The notes under the pieces are model-generated. The model was given only the letters and a program-made list of their open reading frames with translations. It made no database searches and was not told the DNA's origin. The position numbers and the translations under genes are program-made. Shown piece by piece: positions 1 to 7,745 of a stretch of DNA of 8,940 bases. The DNA comes from a virus (taxonomy: Duplodnaviria; Heunggongvirae; Uroviricota; Caudoviricetes): the IMG/VR virus record IMGVR_UViG_2700989521_000019. One strand, 5' to 3'. Every line of letters starts with the position of its first letter. Positions within the stretch are counted from its first letter, which is position 1.

Positions 1-1218
1 ATGAACAAACTGAGCGATACCTTGCTAAGGAAACTTCATGGTAAGCCAGCGGAGAAAAACACGTTTTATAGTGATGGCGGAAACCTGAGCGTGAAATATT
101 TAACATCAGGGAAATTGACCTGGTATTTCACATACAGGGCCGGAACGGGAAGGGAGACACGACCCGAACGCATTAAGCTGGGAAGTTATCCTGATCTGAG
201 CCTGAAATCAGCCAGGGAAAAAGCCGCCCAGTGTCGCGCATGGCTGGCAGAGGGGAAAAATCCACGTCATGAGCTTAATTACACCGTACAGGAAGCGTTA
301 AAGCCGGTAACGGTTGGCGATGCGCTCACCTACTGGCTTGAGTATTACGTAAAGGAAAACCGCGTGGATTATATCGCCCTGAAAAGGCGACTTAATAATC
401 ACGTAATACAGCAGATTGGTGCTATGCCGCTGGATAAATGCGAGCTACGGCACTGGCTGGCCTGTTTTGACCAGGTGGCAAAGCGAACGCCTGTTACTGC
501 CGGATTCGTGCTACAGGCGTGCAAACAGGCGCTTAAGTTCTGCCGTAGGCGGCGCTATGCAATCAGCAACGTTCTGGACGATCTGAACGTGGCGGACGTT
601 GGGAAAAAACCGGATATAAGCGAACGTGTCTTAAGTAACAAAGAACTTGGCGAATTATTGCAGGCACTGGACAAAAAAATATTCTCCCCTTACTACGTCG
701 CGTTAATCCGCCTCCTGATTGTCTTCGGAGCCAGAACGGTAGAACTGAGGTTATCGGAGATCGGGGAGTGGGATTTTACGGAAATGCTATGGACCGTTCC
801 GAAGGAGCACAGCAAAACGAAGGTCGCAATATTCCGGCCCATACCGGAAGCGATCCTGCCGTTCGTCACGCAGCTGGTGGAGCAGAACAGGCACACGGGC
901 TTATTGCTGGGGGAAGTGAAACAGGAGGCCAGCGTATCGCAGTATGGAAGATTAGCGCACAGGAGGCTTAATCATCCTCACTGGTCACTGCATGACATCC
1001 GGCGCACCTTTACAACCATGCTGAACGATTTAGGCGTTGATCCGCATGTCGTGGAGCAGCTTACAGGCCACCAGATGCCAGGAATGCAGCGAGTTTATAA
1101 TCATTCCCGTTATCTGGATGCTAAACGCAATGCGCTGGATATGTGGACGGAGCGGTTAGGGATACTGGCGGGAACACATGAAAACGTAACCACGCTACCA
1201 GTAGCCAGAAGAAAATAA
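1..1218 (+). CDS. int: Tyrosine recombinase / phage integrase, P4-like family (405 aa). Begins at window edge so the true start could lie upstream.
   Basis: N-terminal arm-binding-type region (LSDTLLRKLHGKP...FYSDGGNLSVKY...WYFTYR) typical of P4-family integrases; C-terminal catalytic signature with box I Arg (GARTVELR), HxxR (LHDIRRTF), GHQ and terminal Tyr (RVYNHSRY). Long uninterrupted ORF with the expected int-alpA neighbourhood. Confidence 0.9.
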   Translation: MNKLSDTLLRKLHGKPAEKNTFYSDGGNLSVKYLTSGKLTWYFTYRAGTGRETRPERIKLGSYPDLSLKSAREKAAQCRAWLAEGKNPRHELNYTVQEALKPVTVGDALTYWLEYYVKENRVDYIALKRRLNNHVIQQIGAMPLDKCELRHWLACFDQVAKRTPVTAGFVLQACKQALKFCRRRRYAISNVLDDLNVADVGKKPDISERVLSNKELGELLQALDKKIFSPYYVALIRLLIVFGARTVELRLSEIGEWDFTEMLWTVPKEHSKTKVAIFRPIPEAILPFVTQLVEQNRHTGLLLGEVKQEASVSQYGRLAHRRLNHPHWSLHDIRRTFTTMLNDLGVDPHVVEQLTGHQMPGMQRVYNHSRYLDAKRNALDMWTERLGILAGTHENVTTLPVARRK

Positions 1219-1235
1219 TTTTTTTCGTGTTTTTT

Positions 1236-1251
1236 CAGTATGCGCATACTG
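1236..1251. repeat. Perfect 16-bp palindrome CAGTATGCGCATACTG just downstream of the int stop; candidate protein-binding site
   Basis: Read directly: cagtatgc|gcatactg is its own reverse complement; preceded by a T-rich tract and followed by a partial repeat gtatatgcga. Confidence 0.5.
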
Positions 1252-1260
1252 TATATGCGA

Positions 1261-1310
1261 ACAGATACAACGTGCAACAATGAGCAACAATGTGGAACAA
1301 CCACGAACAA
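1261..1310. repeat. Five tandem 10-bp units each ending in (A)ACAA (acagatacaa cgtgcaacaa tgagcaacaa tgtggaacaa ccacgaacaa); helically phased repeat array
   Basis: Read directly; the 10-bp periodicity places AACAA on one face of the helix, consistent with phased binding sites or intrinsic bending, in the int-alpA intergenic region. Confidence 0.5.
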
Positions 1311-1584
1311 GAGGCGAAAAAGCATACAGATTTATAAGTGGCTGATTTTTAATGTGTCACTGGTTTTTTATACACTAGCGAATCACTCTTTAAAGAGCGA
1401 GAAAAAAGGCATGAAACAATATTTTATGCCTTTGTATTAACATGAATTTAAAATATTTTATTCTTACTGTTTCATTTTCTGTAAATCATACATCCTCAAT
1501 ATTTGCCATTCATCACTCTAGCGGGAACAATACGACACAATAAGACACCTGATGACTCTTTAAGAAACGAAAGGGGGGGCAATA

Positions 1585-1773
1585 GTGTTAAGCACTGATC
1601 GGTTTATACGTGAAAAAGAATGCGAAAAACTAACCGGCCTTAGCCGTACGTGTCGCTACCGCCTGGAAAAGGCCGGACAATTCCCATCACGTCGTAAACT
1701 TGGCGGTCGTTCCGTTGGCTGGTCTTTATCCGAGGTTCTGGCCTGGAAGGATAGCTGCAAGGCAGTTCATTAA
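1585..1773 (+). CDS. alpA: AlpA/Vis-family transcriptional regulator (prophage CP4-57-type regulatory protein / excisionase-like), 62 aa, GTG start
   Basis: Sequence FIREKECEKLTGLSRTCRYRLEKAGQFPSRRKLGGRSVGWSLSEVLAWKDS matches the AlpA-family pattern (LTGLSRxTIYRL...FPxPxKLGxRSVGWxxSEVxxW). Strong SD-like AAGGGGGGG 5 nt upstream of GTG 1585. Position immediately after int is typical. Confidence 0.8.
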   Translation: MLSTDRFIREKECEKLTGLSRTCRYRLEKAGQFPSRRKLGGRSVGWSLSEVLAWKDSCKAVH

Positions 1774-1919
1774 TCACGCTGGCGGCACGCAGCCGCCACA
1801 CATCAATCATCTGAACACAGAGCTATAACCATGAAGATTGAATATACGCCAGAACGTGGGCGGGGATTCGTTCGCCCTGGTGAAACTGAAAAACAACAAA
1901 ATTGGGGTTTTTCAGGTAT

Positions 1920-1948
1920 AAAAAAAGCGGCCCCGAAATGGAGCCGCC
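1920..1948 (-). terminator. Intrinsic terminator for the minus-strand unit (RHH-like gene and downstream)
   Basis: On the minus strand the RNA reads ggcggcuccauuucggggccgc followed by UUUUUUU: about 8-bp GC-rich stem (one G-U), 5-nt loop, 7-U tail. Confidence 0.5.
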
Positions 1949-2273
1949 TTTCTGAACAGATAACCCGCTGCGCCGTTTGTGTGTGTGATCCCAAACATAA
2001 GCACGGGGATGATAGCCGCTATCAGGCTGGTGGGCAATGCAATCAGTCTGGTTCAGTTCGTTGCCATACCTGCAATGAGCGCTTTTCCCTGTACTCTTTA
2101 AGGAATTGCTCAAGGGCAAAAGCACATGGTGCGAATCTTTCTGATTCATGCTCTATCTTTCTGCGCCGTCTTTTCCGTGCCGGTGATAATGTTTTGGTCA
2201 ATTCTTTATCGGTCATTGTGTTGTCCTGCATAGCAATGCGCCGTAATACCTCACACCACGGCGCTGATAGTGA

Positions 2274-2453
2274 TTATTCTGATTCTTTGGCCTTGCGGCG
2301 CTGGCGGCGTTTGATCTCGCCTTCAAGTGCCGAAACGATAAATTGCCCTGTACTTTCGCCATCTTCCTTTAAATTTTCTACAGCATCAGCTATTGCGTGT
2401 GGTACTCGAGCCTCAAGCTTTTTGGATTTTGCATTAACTGCTTTTGTTGCCAT
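2274..2453 (-). CDS. Small ribbon-helix-helix-like DNA-binding protein (59 aa), candidate repressor of the divergent promoter region
   Basis: Chosen start is the internal ATG (MATKAVNAKSKKLEARVPHAIADAVENLKEDGESTGQFIVSALEGEIKRRQRRKAKESE) with GAGGAA SD 7 nt upstream; the longer 106-aa ORF upstream part is hydrophobic low-quality sequence. Pattern beta-strand (KLEARVP), helix (HAIADAVENL), helix (STGQFIVSALE) resembles CopG/Arc RHH fold; basic C-terminal tail. Family assignment is from pattern only. Confidence 0.55.
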   Translation of the reverse strand: MATKAVNAKSKKLEARVPHAIADAVENLKEDGESTGQFIVSALEGEIKRRQRRKAKESE

Positions 2454-2474
2454 ATCTGATTTCCTCGTTATTAG

Positions 2475-2554
2475 GTGGCTGACAGTATACACACAAGAAA
2501 ACGGAAAAACACTATTGACGTGGCTGACACCCGTTACTAATATAGTGGCTGACA
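2475..2554. promoter_or_regulatory. Divergent promoter/operator region: three direct repeats GTGGCTGACA (2475-2484, 2520-2529, 2545-2554) overlapping a sigma70-like plus-strand promoter (-35 TTGACG 2515-2520, 17-nt spacer, -10 TAATAT 2538-2543)
   Basis: Read directly. Repeat 2 abuts the -35 and repeat 3 abuts the -10/TSS of the rightward promoter; repeat 1 lies in the leader/promoter zone of the leftward RHH-like gene. Promoter hexamers are by consensus matching only. Confidence 0.5.
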
Positions 2555-2647
2555 CCTTTATCAAGGTAATCGATGAAAAGACAAAGCCCCGCAAGTGTCG
2601 TTACCACTCGCAGGGCTTCTAACCAACAACGTAAACTAGGAGCCGTT

Positions 2648-2845
2648 ATGGTTGCTGTAAATCATATACCACACCTTGTACACACACAAACGGCCTTTGT
2701 GTGGCGTTTTCTGGCACTGAGTGCCGGAGAATCTCAAATCATCCACGTAACCGCCTGGACGGAACGCGAAGCGCGTAACCGTTGCCCGTCCGGTTGTGTT
2801 GCTGTATTTGCCGCCCGTATTCGTCAGGAGGTGCGCCATGATTAA
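2648..2845 (+). CDS. Small protein (65 aa), first gene of rightward operon; possibly Icd-like (cell-division-inhibitor-like) family, assignment uncertain
   Basis: ATG 2648 with TAGGAG SD 7 nt upstream; MVAVNHIPHLVHTQTAFVWRFLALSAGESQIIHVTAWTEREARNRCPSGCVAVFAARIRQEVRHD. The FVWRFLAL motif recalls small Icd-like proteins annotated in P4-like elements; from memory, not verified. Confidence 0.5.
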   Translation: MVAVNHIPHLVHTQTAFVWRFLALSAGESQIIHVTAWTEREARNRCPSGCVAVFAARIRQEVRHD

Positions 2846-3050
2846 TCTGTCACTTACTGACCTTAACCGCATTCAGTTTCGTGAGAAATTCACAGGGCAG
2901 CTACTGGTCAATGTGGATAAAGGTCGCGTGGTGTGTAATTACCACTTACCAGATGAAGCAATTGTCGCCACAAGGGAATCATTACAGGAAATCACAAAAC
3001 GTGCCGGAATGATTAACACGAATATTCAGGGGATGCTTTATGCACAATAA
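2838..3050 (+). CDS. Hypothetical protein (70 aa)
   Basis: ATG 2838 overlaps the stop of the upstream gene (translational coupling); AGGAGG SD 6 nt upstream. MINLSLTDLNRIQFREKF... No recognised family. Confidence 0.55.
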   Translation: MINLSLTDLNRIQFREKFTGQLLVNVDKGRVVCNYHLPDEAIVATRESLQEITKRAGMINTNIQGMLYAQ

Positions 3051-3279
3051 AACCACACCGGACGCAGCCGCCGAAGCCATCAAAACGCTGATGCACGCGC
3101 TGATTGATATTTCTGTTATCGCGGACAGGGCACATAAGCACGCCACCAGCGAAACAGAATATGCCGGTGCTTTCGTTCCTCACTCACTGGCTGTCATGCA
3201 ATTTAGTGCTGATACGGCGCTGAATGAGGCCAAAGCTATCCTGATTGCTGATTGTGAAAATGGGGGGGGTTATGCGTGA
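3040..3279 (+). CDS. Hypothetical protein (79 aa)
   Basis: ATG 3040 overlaps upstream stop (3048-3050); CAGGGG SD upstream. MHNKTTPDAAAEAIKTLMHALIDISVIADRAH... No recognised family. Confidence 0.5.
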   Translation: MHNKTTPDAAAEAIKTLMHALIDISVIADRAHKHATSETEYAGAFVPHSLAVMQFSADTALNEAKAILIADCENGGGYA

Positions 3280-3505
3280 TGATCGTTTTAATTCCCTGAA
3301 ACAGGAATTTTCCGGCGTTCCTGATGATGCGGCTGATGCGCTTTCGTCAATGCCAGAACTTATTAGAGCGGCTTTTTTCTTACTTTCCACGAGAGAATAT
3401 AAATCAACGGGGCTTGATGTACTGAATATCGCCGCCGATTATGCGGAATATGTGGCAGAGGCGCGTTATAGAAGAAAATTTCCTGAGGATGTAAGCCATG
3501 CGTGA
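3272..3505 (+). CDS. Hypothetical protein (77 aa)
   Basis: ATG 3272 preceded by a GGGGGGGG run (3262-3269); overlaps the previous gene by 8 nt. MRDDRFNSLKQEFSGVPDDAADALSSMPELIRAAFFLL... Start chosen by RBS; the ORF track start at 3245 is an alternative. Confidence 0.5.
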   Translation: MRDDRFNSLKQEFSGVPDDAADALSSMPELIRAAFFLLSTREYKSTGLDVLNIAADYAEYVAEARYRRKFPEDVSHA

Positions 3506-3731
3506 TATTTACCACCAAACAATAGACCGCGCATTTCTTGCACTTTCTCACAGTGAAAACATGATGGAAATATTGCGCATATGGCTTGAAACACTTGGCG
3601 ACAATGAACGCGACAAACAAAAATCAAGAATTGCCACAGCATTAATAACGCTTCTTGAGCCTGTAATAATGGAACTGCAAGAAATAGATCTATTGCACGA
3701 CAGATATAAAGAACAGCACACCGGAGAATAA
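3498..3731 (+). CDS. Hypothetical helical protein (77 aa)
   Basis: ATG 3498 overlaps the upstream stop; GAGG upstream. MRDIYHQTIDRAFLALSHSENMMEILRIWLETLGDNERDKQ... No recognised family. Confidence 0.5.
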   Translation: MRDIYHQTIDRAFLALSHSENMMEILRIWLETLGDNERDKQKSRIATALITLLEPVIMELQEIDLLHDRYKEQHTGE

Positions 3732-3736
3732 AAATA

Positions 3737-4036
3737 ATGAAACTTAAATATTCTGGCTTAACTGCCAGTGGCAACACTCACCCTAAATTTACGCGCGGTG
3801 ATATTTACCGCGACCAGTACGGCGGCACGGTAATGATTAAGGACGTGGAAGAACGGCGCGTAACCTACCGCCGTGAAGGTTACGAATATGATTGCGTGAT
3901 GCCTGTTTATCAGTTCCGGCGTGATTTTTCTCTGGTACAGACCGCGCCGCATAACGTGCCCACCAGCAACGCCAGGGCACGGGCAAACATCCAGAAGCTG
4001 AAAACCATGGTTAACGGATTCAGGGGCAAGAAATGA
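3737..4036 (+). CDS. Hypothetical protein (99 aa)
   Basis: ATG 3737 with GGAGAA SD; the stop overlaps the start of the ATPase gene (ATGA-type overlap at 4033-4036). MKLKYSGLTASGNTHPKFTRGDIYRDQYGG... No recognised family. Confidence 0.55.
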   Translation: MKLKYSGLTASGNTHPKFTRGDIYRDQYGGTVMIKDVEERRVTYRREGYEYDCVMPVYQFRRDFSLVQTAPHNVPTSNARARANIQKLKTMVNGFRGKK

Positions 4037-5433
4037 AAAGCGCACCGAACTTAAAAAAACAGCCTTACGACAAGATGACCGAAGTCATTATTTTTGCGGG
4101 TAGTGATGCCTGGGCACATGCGAAACAGTGGCAGGAACAGGACGGGCGACTGGCTGGCGATAATGTGCCTCCCGTTGTGCTGGCTGATGATCAACTGGAT
4201 GAACTGGCAGACCTGAGAATCATCGACGAGGGGCGCTATTGTGTCCGGCTGTACAAGGCAGGCCACATCAGGCCATCAAATATTAATGCCATTGCGCACA
4301 AGCTGGCGGCGGCGGGTGTAACTGATGCGAATTATTACCCCGAAGGGATGCACAGCCATATGCGGGAGAACTGGCGCGAATACCTGGAACGGGTGCGCGG
4401 GAAAGAGCCGGCGGAAGAAAAAAACCACCAGCGAAAAACCACGCTACCGATGAGCGTTGGATCTACCGGATACGACACGCAACTGGATTACGTGGTTAAG
4501 GGGATTATTCCGGCGGTATCGCTATGCAGCATATACGGGGCTAGCGGGTCCTATAAATCATTCCTTGCCGGATCGTGGGCGTGCCATGTTGCCACTGGTC
4601 GCCAGTGGGGAGGCCGCAGGGTTGCACATGGTGCGGTTCTCTATGTGGTTGGTGAAGGCGGTATAGGTGTTCCGCGTCGTGTAAAAGCCTGGGAGGTTGT
4701 GCACGATGAGCAGGTGAAAAATCTGTATCTGGTAAACCGCCCCATCTTTCCGGCTGCCCCGCTTGATGTTGATGAAATGGTTATCGCTGCCCGTCAGGTG
4801 GAGCGGGAAACGGGTAAACCTGTACGCATGATTATTCTGGATACGCTGGCGCGTTGCTTTGGTGGGAATGATGAAAATGATTCCCGTGATATGGGGGCGT
4901 TTATCCGTGGTTGTGACGAACTGAAACGACGCACAGGGGCCACGGTGCTGGTGGTTCACCATTCCGGCAAGGATGAGACGAAAGGCGCGCGCGGTTCCAG
5001 TGCATTTCGTGCTTCGCTGGATGCTGAATACCGGATACGCAGGGAGGACGCAGGAAGCGAAGCGCTGGTTATCTCATGCACCAAAATGAAGGACGCGGAG
5101 GAACTCAAAGAAGCCGCATATGACTTACGCGTGGTGGAGCTTTTTACCGACGCTGACGGTGAATTAATCACGTCGCTGGTGGTGGTGGATGATCCGCGCC
5201 CTCCTGTTGAACTGGAGCGCATCGAGGAGGCAGGGAACAAGACGGAAAACCATACCGCGCTATGGGGGTGCATCCGTTCACGCACACAGAACGGCGACAA
5301 GTGCACGATCCCGCTGTTACGTGATGACATGAAAAAGCTGGGGTATGAAATGAAAAACTTCCGGCGCTGGCTGTACAAGCTGGAAAAAGATGGGGTTATT
5401 CGTATCGATGGGGATGATGTAGCGCCGCTATAA
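4033..5433 (+). CDS. RecA-fold / AAA-type ATPase, RepA- or DnaB-like replicative helicase-initiator of the element (466 aa); no recognisable primase domain
   Basis: Walker A-like GASGSYKSF (YGASGSYKSFLAGSW), Walker B-like hydrophobic strand plus acidic residue (VRMIILDTLARCFGGNDEND), downstream VLVVHHSGKDETKGARGSSAF resembling DnaB/RepA-type motifs. About 160-aa N-terminal domain of unassigned function. Long ORF with AGGGG SD. Confidence 0.85.
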   Translation: MKSAPNLKKQPYDKMTEVIIFAGSDAWAHAKQWQEQDGRLAGDNVPPVVLADDQLDELADLRIIDEGRYCVRLYKAGHIRPSNINAIAHKLAAAGVTDANYYPEGMHSHMRENWREYLERVRGKEPAEEKNHQRKTTLPMSVGSTGYDTQLDYVVKGIIPAVSLCSIYGASGSYKSFLAGSWACHVATGRQWGGRRVAHGAVLYVVGEGGIGVPRRVKAWEVVHDEQVKNLYLVNRPIFPAAPLDVDEMVIAARQVERETGKPVRMIILDTLARCFGGNDENDSRDMGAFIRGCDELKRRTGATVLVVHHSGKDETKGARGSSAFRASLDAEYRIRREDAGSEALVISCTKMKDAEELKEAAYDLRVVELFTDADGELITSLVVVDDPRPPVELERIEEAGNKTENHTALWGCIRSRTQNGDKCTIPLLRDDMKKLGYEMKNFRRWLYKLEKDGVIRIDGDDVAPL

Positions 5434-5622
5434 AAGTGAGGAGCAAAAGCGAGGGGGATAGAAAGAGGGCCAAAATTAGCCCGCTCTCCCTCACTTTTCG
5501 ACCTGTATACATCCTCAAAAGTGAGGGGTAAAAAAATACTTATGAAACACACACATAGAAAAACCGAAAATCCCAACTGCGACGAAGTGAGACGCTTGAA
5601 AAAGTGAGGCGAAAAAGTGAGA
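5433..5622. repeat. Iteron-like cluster: six copies of core AAGTGAG (consensus AAAGTGAGG) at 5433-5441, 5489-5497 (inverted), 5518-5526, 5585-5593, 5601-5609, 5614-5622, plus degenerate copies (AAAGCGAGG 5446-5454); candidate ori or operator array
   Basis: Read directly in the 200-bp intergenic region between the replicative ATPase gene and the ssb-containing operon. Confidence 0.55.
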
Positions 5623-5633
5623 GGTTGCGAGAA

Positions 5634-5885
5634 ATGACCCAAAAACGCAGAGACAGAACAGAGCCAAAATATAAAGCGTTAGACATGACTGAGCACACCT
5701 TAAAGGTGGCAATCAGAACGATAGACCGCCACACGCGGGAAGGATACGCGAAGGAACATCCCGACCTGATAAGCGCATTCATGACCACGGTGGCGGCAAA
5801 CTTTGCCACGCTGACAGAACGGGAGATTGCCGAAGCGGAACAGGTAACAACCATCAACGTTAAAACCGGAGAGGTGGAATTATGA
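5634..5885 (+). CDS. Hypothetical protein (83 aa); start ambiguous (GTG 5604, ATG 5634 or ATG 5685)
   Basis: ORF in frame with plausible GAGAGG SD before ATG 5634; stop overlaps the ssb-like start. MTQKRRDRTEPKYKALDMTEHTLKVAIRTIDRHTREGYAKEHPDLISAF... No recognised family. Confidence 0.45.
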   Translation: MTQKRRDRTEPKYKALDMTEHTLKVAIRTIDRHTREGYAKEHPDLISAFMTTVAANFATLTEREIAEAEQVTTINVKTGEVEL

Positions 5886-6292
5886 CGGCACAGATAGCCG
5901 CTTACGGGCGGCTGGTGGACGACCCGCAGGTAAAACAGACCAGCAAGGGCACACCGATGACGCTGGCGCGTATGGCGGTATCTTTGCCATGCAGCCAGGC
6001 ACAGGACGGACAGGCGACGTTATGGTTATCGGTCATCGCATTTGGCAAACAGGCCGACTTCCTGGCTAAACATCAAAAAGGCGATGTTGCCAGCGTATCC
6101 GGCACGATGCAGGTAAGCCAGTGGACCGGACAGAACGGAGAAACGCGGCAGGGCTGGCAGGTTATCGCAGACAGCGTAATCAGTGCCCGCGCGGCACGTC
6201 CAGGCGGGAACAGACGCAAAACCACAGGCACACAGGGTAATCAGCCACCAGCGGGAGGCGATGACCCTTACGGTGATGATATTTCGTTCTGA
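5882..6292 (+). CDS. ssb: Single-stranded DNA-binding protein-like (SSB family), 136 aa, element-encoded
   Basis: N-terminal OB-fold-like pattern (IAAYGRLVDDPQVKQTSKGTPMTLARMAVSL...WLSVIAFGKQADFLAKHQKGDVASVSGTMQVSQWTGQNGETRQ), Gly/Gln/Pro-rich linker and acidic C-terminal tail DDPYGDDISF resembling the SSB tail DDDIPF. GGAG SD; start overlaps upstream stop. Confidence 0.7.
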   Translation: MTAQIAAYGRLVDDPQVKQTSKGTPMTLARMAVSLPCSQAQDGQATLWLSVIAFGKQADFLAKHQKGDVASVSGTMQVSQWTGQNGETRQGWQVIADSVISARAARPGGNRRKTTGTQGNQPPAGGDDPYGDDISF

Positions 6293-6302
6293 GGGGGTGA
6301 CG

Positions 6303-6575
6303 ATGGTACATGACCGCATAGCGGAGGAACTGGAGGCGAAAGGCTTTTACCGGAGGGCGGCGGCGCGATGGGGTGAAGTCATGCAGCTGGTGGAGACAGG
6401 CAAGGAACGGCATCACATCACGATGCGACGGCTGGAATGTTCAAGGAAGGCACAGAGGGCACCGGAGCCGCCGGATAATTTCGGAGACCTGAAAAAGGCA
6501 GTCGATCGCACTTATGCCGAAATGGGTATAGATGGTGCTGGTGATGAAATATGGCGCAATTACCAGGACAGCTAA
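6303..6575 (+). CDS. PerC-family transcriptional regulator-like protein (90 aa)
   Basis: Start ATG 6303 with GAGGGGG SD 5 nt upstream (the longer ORF from 6183 overlaps ssb and lacks an RBS). N-terminus AEELEAKGFYRRAAARWGEVM matches the conserved PerC motif (EEKGLWRRAAxRW) as remembered. Confidence 0.65.
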   Translation: MVHDRIAEELEAKGFYRRAAARWGEVMQLVETGKERHHITMRRLECSRKAQRAPEPPDNFGDLKKAVDRTYAEMGIDGAGDEIWRNYQDS

Positions 6576-6581
6576 TCAAAC

Positions 6582-6605
6582 AGCCGGAGAAATCCGGCTT
6601 TTTTT
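6582..6605 (+). terminator. Rho-independent terminator after the perC-like gene
   Basis: AGCCGGA-GAAA-TCCGGCT (7-bp stem, GNRA tetraloop) followed by a T6 run. Confidence 0.75.
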
Positions 6606-6701
6606 GCACCAGTTGAAACGGTATGGCGCATTACCGGGTTTTCGTCACGGTCAGGCATAGTTACTATCTGAAACAAACAGACACAACAGAGGAAAAAAAC
6701 A

Positions 6702-6926
6702 ATGCCGATGAAATTTGATGAGATATTAAAACAGCGTGATAAATACCATGCTGACAACATGGAGACGATGAGCATCAATGATTACCGCGCATTCCTGGAG
6801 ACGGGCGCACTGATTGAAAAGGATCAGCATGGTTTTGTGAGATGTGCTCTATCCGGTGAAATGCTGGCGGTAAATCCTGAACAGATAGATGCATTGATAG
6901 AATTTCTGAAAGAGATCAGAGACTGA
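6702..6926 (+). CDS. Hypothetical protein (74 aa)
   Basis: ATG 6702 with GAGGAA SD; MPMKFDEILKQRDKYHADNMETMSINDYRAFLETGALIEKDQHGFVRCALSGEMLAVNPEQIDALIEFLKEIRD; bounded by terminators on both sides. No recognised family. Confidence 0.55.
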   Translation: MPMKFDEILKQRDKYHADNMETMSINDYRAFLETGALIEKDQHGFVRCALSGEMLAVNPEQIDALIEFLKEIRD

Positions 6927-6945
6927 GCCAGCACACAGCACACAT

Positions 6946-6968
6946 AGCCGGAGCAATCCGGCTTTTTT
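6946..6968 (+). terminator. Rho-independent terminator, near-duplicate of the one at 6582-6605
   Basis: AGCCGGA-GCAA-TCCGGCT (same 7-bp stem, GNRA loop) followed by a T5 run. Confidence 0.75.
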
Positions 6969-7007
6969 GCGCCCAAAAAAAGCCCGGCGAGTCAGATTTC
7001 ATCAATC

Positions 7008-7208
7008 ATGGACAGCCTCCCGCTTACTATGCAAAGGAGCTTCCCACAGATTACCCCCGCCATGCTGGATAGGCTTAAAAGGGAAGTGGTTAAAGCCTGT
7101 AATGCCAGTGCCAGAGTTGCCGACAACCTCCCACAGATACTGGCTGATTACTTGAAAGAAACAACCGGAAACGTACCGGAAAAGTTGCTACAGAAGAAAG
7201 GCGAGTAA
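7008..7208 (+). CDS. Hypothetical protein (66 aa); weak call, start and RBS unclear
   Basis: ORF only; no convincing SD for ATG 7008, 7029 or 7062. MDSLPLTMQRSFPQITPAMLDRLKREVVKACNASARVADNLPQILADYLKETTGNVPEKLLQKKGE. Confidence 0.3.
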   Translation: MDSLPLTMQRSFPQITPAMLDRLKREVVKACNASARVADNLPQILADYLKETTGNVPEKLLQKKGE

Positions 7209-7463
7209 CAGACGCGCAATTATTGAACAAAACTGAGAAACGACATGAAAGCGTCATAAATCGCCATTTTAGATGATTACCGTGTCGTTTCTTTTTATTG
7301 TGTATCTATTTAAAAACAAATAGTTATGTTCGAGAAGTACCGACATGCTTTTTCCAGAAAAATTTTCATAAACAGATAAAAACCGCGAGGTCGCCGCCCC
7401 GTAACGGGCCATAATTCCAGGAAGGACCCGACGACACCAGACTATCAGAGCGATGGGGGCACA

Positions 7464-7745
7464 ATGACAGAAGCCGAACTACTGGGATTAATCCGCCGCG
7501 TTACCGGAATCAGCCAGCAGCATGACGAACAGGCCACGCAGCCGGACAGCGTGACCGCCGAAAATTACGCGCGTGTGGTTGCTGAGGTGATGCGCCGTGA
7601 TGGTATCCAGCTTAATGATGTGGATATGCGCAACATACGGATCCGCGTTCTTGAAATGCTGGCCTACAATCGCCGCGTGGCACTGTATCGGGAAACGGAG
7701 AAAATTACGTACCACTGGAAGAAGCCGGAGCGGTTACGGCGTTAA
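7464..7745 (+). CDS. Hypothetical protein (93 aa)
   Basis: ATG 7464 preceded by a GGGGG run; ORF with balanced composition (MTEAELLGLIRRVTGISQQHDEQATQPDSVTAENYARVVAEVMRRDGIQLNDVDMRNIRIRVLEMLAYNRRVALYRETEKITYHWKKPERLRR). No recognised family. Confidence 0.45.
   Translation: MTEAELLGLIRRVTGISQQHDEQATQPDSVTAENYARVVAEVMRRDGIQLNDVDMRNIRIRVLEMLAYNRRVALYRETEKITYHWKKPERLRR

Follow-up and report, generated by a model that had tools for sequence, protein, structure and literature searches.

The 8,940-nucleotide stretch of DNA analyzed here (the window) belongs, by gene content and sequence identity, to the phage-inducible chromosomal islands (PICIs) of E. coli, and within these to the EcCI042/EcCICFT073 type. 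Over positions 1–6986 it shares 99.9% identity with the E. coli 042 island, which is located between tqsA and mdtJ, and with an O157:H7 island. Both islands are annotated with an integrase, an AlpA-like regulator, a RepA-family helicase, an SSB and a PerC-family regulator, after which come a major-capsid homologue and a head-decoration protein; in this comparison a small terminase subunit is annotated in the O157:H7 island only. We find Pfam matches to AlpA, a RepA-type AAA_25 domain, SSB and PerC in the window, which has int, alpA, the replication gene, ssb and perC in common with EcCI042, EcCICFT073 and EcCIEDL933 (PMC6092414; PMC6739421; 10.1101/2022.09.08.507074). EcCICFT073 and EcCI042 have been described as Gram-negative PICIs (PMC6092414), and EcCIEDL933 typifies the capsid-forming PICIs, which carry an HK97-type capsid module (10.1101/2022.09.08.507074). 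The features by which Gram-negative PICIs are recognized (int, alpA, a replication gene with adjacent ori, an accessory perC, a cos region, ∼10–15 kb in size, and a specific chromosomal site) assign the window to this group, although its packaging module is partly deleted.

Judged by gene order, perC is the last gene of the island's early block (alpA-rep-ssb-perC). Copies that are 99.9% identical to it carry the RefSeq name PerC family regulator, and its homologue in Sakai Sp7 is named pchE. Its stop codon (6573–6575) is followed after 6 nt by a hairpin, T1, and a second hairpin, T2, begins 19 nt after the stop codon (6924–6926) of a small open reading frame, ORF74 (Table 1). The first-pass annotation had noted two such hairpins with a common stem, GAAA and GCAA loops of GNRA form, and a 74-amino acid reading frame between them; all of these elements are present. 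Sakai Sp7, an EcCIEDL933-type island, has the order pchE-T1-ECs_1589-T2, followed by an HK97-type capsid gene. Neither the word "terminator" nor a gene number matching ORF74 occurs in the full text of the PICI and capsid-forming PICI papers (PMC6092414; PMC6739421; 10.1101/2022.09.08.507074), and a paper on PchE mentions neither terminators nor this small gene. In identical islands, RefSeq annotates a 42-amino acid "hypothetical protein" (WP_001301569.1) at the position of window 6532–6660 (+). The annotated gene lies over the 3′ end of perC in a different reading frame and then crosses T1, and it is therefore probably a spurious gene call.

Table 1. Features at the junction of the early block and the packaging module
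Feature	Position in window	Strand	Description
perC-family gene (pchD/pchE group)	6303–6575	+	Pfam PerC, E 4e-42
T1, predicted intrinsic terminator, repeat copy 1	6582–6605	+	7-bp stem AGCCGGA/TCCGGCT, GAAA loop, 6 T
Cassette leader/spacer	6606–6701	+	GAGG Shine-Dalgarno sequence at 6689–6692; GC 0.42; mean pairwise identity 0.97 (37 distinct cassettes)
ORF74, conserved small protein, 74 aa	6702–6926	+	phrog_1957; ECs_1589 in Sakai Sp7
T2, second copy of the same predicted terminator	6946–6968	+	Stem AGCCGGA/TCCGGCT, GCAA loop, 5 T
T3 remnant (AAAAAAAGCCCG) of a predicted bidirectional terminator hairpin	6975–6986	+	BLAST break-points; deletion junction 6986/6987
terS remnant, in-frame C-terminal 66 aa of a Nu1-like small-terminase homologue	7008–7208	+	phrog_57, phrog_1790; weak Pfam Phage_Nu1 match

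Past T2, the window departs from intact islands, where T2 is directly followed by the long bidirectional hairpin T3 (AAAAAAAGCCCGATAAGG...CTTATCGGGCTTTTGC; positions 9881–9912 of the intact island L001, and also found in L003) and then by the capsid module. T3 and T2 fold together at −35 kcal/mol. A deletion of ∼2.7–3 kb relative to the intact islands begins 18 nt past T2, inside T3, and ends inside the small-terminase-like gene, the junction in the window corresponding to L001 9887 / about 12634 and to L002 10988 / 13980. The terS remnant aligns to L001 from 12634 onwards, inside the annotated terS gene. Compared with the described PICIs, the window copy thus lacks the capsid-homologue module: the deletion takes away T3, the promoter region of the capsid module, the homologues of the capsid and decoration proteins, and the first (N-terminal) two-thirds of the small-terminase-like gene. 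Microhomology (AAAGC..G) is seen at the junction, and a 261-nt query spanning it is matched at ≥80% coverage nowhere in 5426 complete E. coli genomes. The terS remnant is 98.6% identical to Nissle/UPEC-type islands vs only 89% to the O157 island; a PDB sequence search asking whether the deleted small-terminase-like gene is that of the published Rpp protein found no match. By eye, we located a TTGCAT-16-TATAAT element 3′ of T3 (L001 9995–10022), which has a perfect −10 hexamer and precedes the first gene of the capsid module by ∼55 nt. Our promoter scan missed this element, its −35 hexamer matching at 3/6 positions, and the region is deleted in the window. Further downstream, a 94-nt segment (7312–7405) with 90% identity to the cos/terminase-gp1/IHF region in phage 21 and related phages is presumably the cos site of the island; intact islands contain a partial inverted copy of window 7366–7430.

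Two copies of a predicted terminator

The hairpin of T1 (AGCCGGAGAAATCCGGCT, 6582–6599) and that of T2 (AGCCGGAGCAATCCGGCT, 6946–6963) each run directly into a T-run (6600–6605 and 6964–6968, respectively). Both are found on the + strand by a terminator scan, as stems of 7 pairs (5 G-C) closed by a 4-nt loop, and RNA folding yields −13.3 kcal/mol for T1 (z −3.4) and −15.9 kcal/mol for T2 (z −4.8) in comparison with shuffled sequences. Both elements have the attributes of intrinsic terminators, namely a G+C-rich, stable stem-loop, a 3′ U tract, and a site just past a stop codon in the orientation of the gene, and we classify them as predicted Rho-independent terminators at which termination would occur. 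An Rfam search of 6300–7500 at E values up to 1 returned only a chance lncRNA match inside perC.

T1 and T2 resemble the Rho-independent terminators of E. coli and its phages in their G+C-rich 7-bp stem, GNRA tetraloop and 5–7 U tract, located shortly after a stop codon on the coding strand, and in the tandem arrangement of T2 and T3 before the next operon in intact islands. They differ from ordinary ones in that a single stem sequence is fixed across a satellite family behind different last genes and here occurs twice, 364 nt apart. With up to 2 mismatches allowed, the pattern AGCCGGANNNNTCCGGCT has exactly two matches in the window, T1 and T2; 0.04 matches are expected by chance, and none of 200 shuffled sequences contained two or more. 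A repeat search returned one family of direct repeats (6577–6604 and 6941–6968; 28 nt, 89% identity, spacing 364), and by eye the likeness extends through TTTTT(T)GC(A/G)CC to about 6609 and 6972. The two hairpins are clearly of common origin, and their earlier description as duplicated punctuation is apt. We also noted a weak terminator-like hairpin at 6619–6636 (CGGTA..TACCG followed by GGTTTTCG), 20 nt after T1 and inside the conserved leader of ORF74.

The hairpin across the island family

We examined 80 IMG/VR loci with PerC relatives (73–99% amino acid identity) and three loci from complete genomes. The hairpin is present 8–19 nt past the last aligned perC codon in 81 of the 81 loci for which downstream sequence is available, with at most 2 substitutions, and a T-run follows it in all related loci listed. 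Four loops occur (GAAA, GCAA, GTAA and GGAA only), with all variation confined to position 2, where each of the four bases is seen, and with every loop still of GNRA form. In the perC-linked loci the stem is invariant apart from rare single changes, and there are zero compensatory changes in >150 copies. Since the stem never varies, covariation speaks neither for nor against an RNA structure and leaves room for sequence-specific recognition; only the pattern of the loop carries information.

Islands without perC have the same hairpin. An exact-pattern scan of viral contigs located it after ssb in 30 loci and after a p83-family gene in 8 loci, 15–18 nt past the end of these genes (15 nt after the ...IPF stop of ssb). 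In the perC-less PICIs L217, L245, L163, L145 and others, the early block is closed directly after ssb (..GDNIPF, stop) or the p83-family gene (..VKSAGE, stop). Because the same hairpin closes these islands after ssb or the p83-family gene, perC looks like an optional gene that has been added upstream of a fixed terminator. At least three kinds of capsid module are found 3′ of the hairpin: a lambda-like capsid with decoration protein, an HK97-like capsid with protease, and a ClpP-capsid fusion. In BLAST comparisons with other genomes, the alignment ends at window position 6603–6604 or 6967, inside the two T-runs. On this comparative evidence, early operons throughout the PICI family end in this conserved hairpin, whatever their last gene, and it is not confined to the small-gene cassette.

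The identical hairpin (AGCCGGAG-N-AATCCGGCT plus T-run) also stands behind unrelated genes in ∼40 unrelated viral contigs with a mean GC of 0.41. In these contigs (among L137–L254, e.g. L152, L147, L143 and L153), an upstream A-tract is frequent, as in bidirectional terminators. Their hairpins are probably a convergent reuse of a good terminator design.

According to the modular theory of lambdoid phages, attributed to Susskind and Botstein, and to later observations on boundary sequences, "linker" sequences at module boundaries have reportedly been proposed for lambdoid mosaicism. The hairpin is like these linkers in being a short conserved sequence at which homology switches, three or more capsid modules being joined here to the same early block. 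Unlike them, it has an obvious function of its own, that of a predicted terminator, which could explain its conservation without a role in recombination. The hairpin repeat (18–28 bp) is near the lower limit for homologous recombination, and some exchange points lie outside the hairpin.

A facultative cassette containing ORF74

The segment 6606–6945 is present in 541 of 5426 complete E. coli genomes, and the perC region in 1052 of them. Within the IMG/VR perC set, 36 loci contain ORF74 and 45 lack it, both states occurring with lambda-like and with HK97-type capsid modules. All ORF74-positive loci are ordered perC-T1-ORF74-T2, and the upstream gene is perC in 39/39 informative loci. In matched pairs of islands, the difference amounts to exactly one hairpin and the ORF74 segment. 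Thus, L115 (with ORF74) and L119 (without) are 100% identical in the 400 nt upstream and 98% identical in the 400 nt downstream; the values are 99 and 99% for L136 (with) and L134 (without), and 98.8 and 96.2% for L062 (with) and L057 (without). The sole hairpin of the ORF74-less partners has the upstream flank of T1 and the downstream flank of T2, and the pairs are compatible with deletion between the repeats and with insertion alike. A comparison of relatives for presence or absence of 6606–6968, as proposed in the first-pass annotation, hence yields two states, perC-T-ORF74-T or perC-T alone, with end-points inside the hairpin copies; relatives that uniformly carry a single terminator, with the small gene in another context, are not what we find.

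Across 37 distinct sequences with ORF74, pairwise identity averages 0.87 in the 3′ part of perC, 0.97–0.99 from T1 through ORF74, 0.59 just before T2, and 0.55 further downstream. The cassette thus varies less than the backgrounds in which it is found, which argues for exchange between islands and not only for repeated loss. On the right-hand side, the switch between capsid-module types falls in the last ∼30 nt of ORF74 and its 3′ UTR and not exactly at T2. As defined by these comparisons, a 364-bp unit (one hairpin copy, the 96-nt leader and ORF74) is a facultative cassette at the junction of the early and capsid modules.

ORF74 matches phrog_1957, a family without assigned function, over its full length (E 2.3e-42; residues 1–74 on profile positions 1–74 of 82). 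An exhaustive protein search returned about 17 cluster representatives with 31–43% identity and lengths of 66–106 amino acids; relatives at ∼40% identity come from this search, the word-indexed search having returned only relatives with ≥66% identity, nearly all of them >90%. Between diverged E. coli alleles, pN/pS is 0.08–0.22, a signature of purifying selection by which ORF74 qualifies as a real gene. Homologues in Serratia, Enterobacter, Leclercia, Phytobacter, Gilliamella and Citrobacter are located between the replication gene (or an iteron-rich origin) and an HK97-type capsid module. These distant loci are without perC or ssb, and their downstream hairpins are different. In Enterobacter, Leclercia and Phytobacter (L049, L050 and L051, about 3870–4000), iterons of the GTGCGGC(A/G) type, presumably the replication origin of the satellite, lie upstream of the ORF74 homologue, which directly follows the iteron run with no terminator between them.

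The AlphaFold2 model of ORF74 (pLDDT 83) folds into a helix-helix-short strand-helix arrangement, for which Foldseek searches of the PDB and BFVD returned no significant match. A search of PDB sequences with the ORF74 profile yielded a weak match to residues 82–121 in the recognition domain of the nicking endonuclease N.BspD6I (E 2e-4), which we treat as a lead only. In the exhaustive search, the central part of ORF74 (residues 21–57) is matched in seven separate stretches of a 1383-amino acid protein, P0019. The core of ORF74 may be a reusable small domain, possibly one that binds nucleic acids.

Proposed expression and exchange of the cassette

We consider it rather probable that duplicated junction terminators bound a facultative ORF74 cassette that is gained and lost by recombination in the repeats, and this is our best explanation of the locus as a whole. 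T1 and T2 would be two copies of the terminator at the end of the early alpA-replication-ssb-perC operon, where this operon meets the packaging/capsid module. T1 would stop early-operon transcripts past perC and T2 would end the ORF74 transcript, and in intact islands T2 and T3 together would insulate a separately promoted capsid module. Bounded by ∼28-bp direct repeats, the unit would for this reason tend to be lost when T1 and T2 recombine or when slippage occurs between them. Recombination between islands would bring it back, with the result that it now resides in diverged perC backgrounds and before two different capsid modules.

Expression of ORF74 itself may depend on transcripts that read through T1, partially or under regulation, when the island is induced, and may stay at a level below that of the early genes. 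We favor read-through because there is no recognizable promoter and because the distant homologues directly follow a replication gene. At the threshold of our scan (9 of 12 positions), no sigma-70 promoter is found in 6600–6701; the best match in the leader, TTTTCG (6639)-17-TACTAT (6662–6667), reaches 7/12, a consensus-based score that an activator-dependent promoter could escape. A weak or activator-dependent promoter for ORF74 is indeed a serious alternative because the leader is conserved, to the same degree as ORF74, and because the linkage to perC is strict. Such conservation of the leader could reflect a promoter that is unrecognized or activator-dependent. T1, moreover, looks strong (perfect stem, 6–7 U), and read-through may accordingly be low enough for such a promoter to be needed.

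The first-pass annotation proposed a moron-like, independent transcription unit that arose by insertion or local duplication. The moron concept is said to come from comparisons of HK97 and HK022 by Juhala, Hendrix and colleagues, in which an extra gene with its own promoter and terminator was reportedly found between conserved genes. Like the lambdoid morons, the cassette is a small extra gene that is precisely absent from the same position in some relatives, is of odd base composition (GC 0.43 vs 0.55 for perC, 0.59 for ssb and 0.54 for repA; GC3 0.47 vs 0.57–0.62), and has its own downstream terminator, T2. Unlike them, it has no recognizable promoter on consensus grounds, it is bounded upstream by another copy of the same terminator and not by a promoter, the ORF74 family is a long-standing resident of the junction, and the host element is a satellite and not a phage. 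The cassette works partly like a moron and is not a typical one. From the earlier proposal we thus retain the discrete indel unit, its low GC, its own terminator and the shared origin of the hairpins, but not the promoter in 6606–6700 or the notion of ORF74 as foreign cargo, its family being resident at this junction in six other genera.

In its classical form, a moron at this site would be an autonomous ORF74 unit with its own promoter in 6606–6700 and with T2, which entered from outside the satellite lineage and whose expression in the quiescent island profits the host or the island. Such a unit would fit the presence or absence of the segment between otherwise near-identical islands, its GC content below that of the neighboring genes, the Shine-Dalgarno sequence and terminator that belong to ORF74, and the conserved leader; the gene upstream in every informative locus encodes an activator-family protein, PerC, so that an activator-dependent promoter is conceivable. 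We nevertheless regard this reading as doubtful. The best sigma-70 match stays below the scan threshold, a tblastn search of 50,697 deposited phage records found no copy of ORF74, and satellites of at least six other genera have homologues at this very junction of replication and capsid modules, which marks the gene as a component of the lineage and not as imported cargo.

A further possibility assigns the hairpin a regulatory role as well. The AlpA family of Pfam includes a processive antiterminator in Pseudomonas aeruginosa. The hairpin might then serve the whole satellite family both as a checkpoint under regulation and as a point of exchange: in the quiescent island, T1, T2 and T3 would keep transcription out of ORF74 and the packaging module, read-through of all three, driven by the island's master regulator AlpA upon induction by a helper phage, would produce one early-to-late transcript, and the 18–28 bp of shared homology would serve for the swapping of perC, ORF74 and capsid modules. 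We found no literature linking AlpA, antitermination and PICIs, and we hold this more elaborate scheme to be unlikely.

We consider it very unlikely that the 18-bp perfect palindrome acts primarily at the level of DNA or is recognized by a protein, as an operator for a dimeric regulator or a recombination or cassette-junction site, and is a terminator only incidentally. The stem does remain invariant, free of compensatory substitutions, while the flanking genes diverge to 73% amino acid identity, and it coincides with the mosaic break-points and with the end-points of the cassette. Yet the element is always found on the coding strand, 5–20 nt past a stop codon and with a T-run after it, and the loop keeps its G, A and A and varies only at position 2, which fits a GNRA tetraloop in RNA and not a palindromic DNA site. 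Its recurrence with a T-run behind unrelated genes in the ∼40 low-GC viral contigs points to a generic solution for a terminator, and no recombinase specific for the hairpin is evident. Independent convergence of two unrelated terminators on the same 7-bp stem, with no common origin or cassette behavior, does happen at database scale, as the unrelated viral contigs illustrate, but for T1 and T2 it is effectively refuted by the shuffle expectation for the window, by a likeness that reaches into the non-structural flanks over 28 nt or more, and by the recurrence of the precise one-hairpin-plus-ORF indel in several lineages.

Intrinsic terminators and moron-like cassettes are familiar, and the cassette bounded by duplicated junction terminators does not overturn current views; it is a new documented example, and a tidy one, of fairly ordinary modular evolution. 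If our reading is right, the early and packaging modules of E. coli PICIs and capsid-forming PICIs would be separated by a defined transcriptional boundary, and the shuffling of accessory genes and capsid modules would have a simple physical explanation. The direct repeats, 364 nt apart, predict a spontaneous deletion that would be easily measured. ORF74 (ECs_1589 in O157 Sakai) is flagged as a conserved gene that is naturally variable in its presence or absence, and the hairpin provides a practical landmark for the annotation of these islands.
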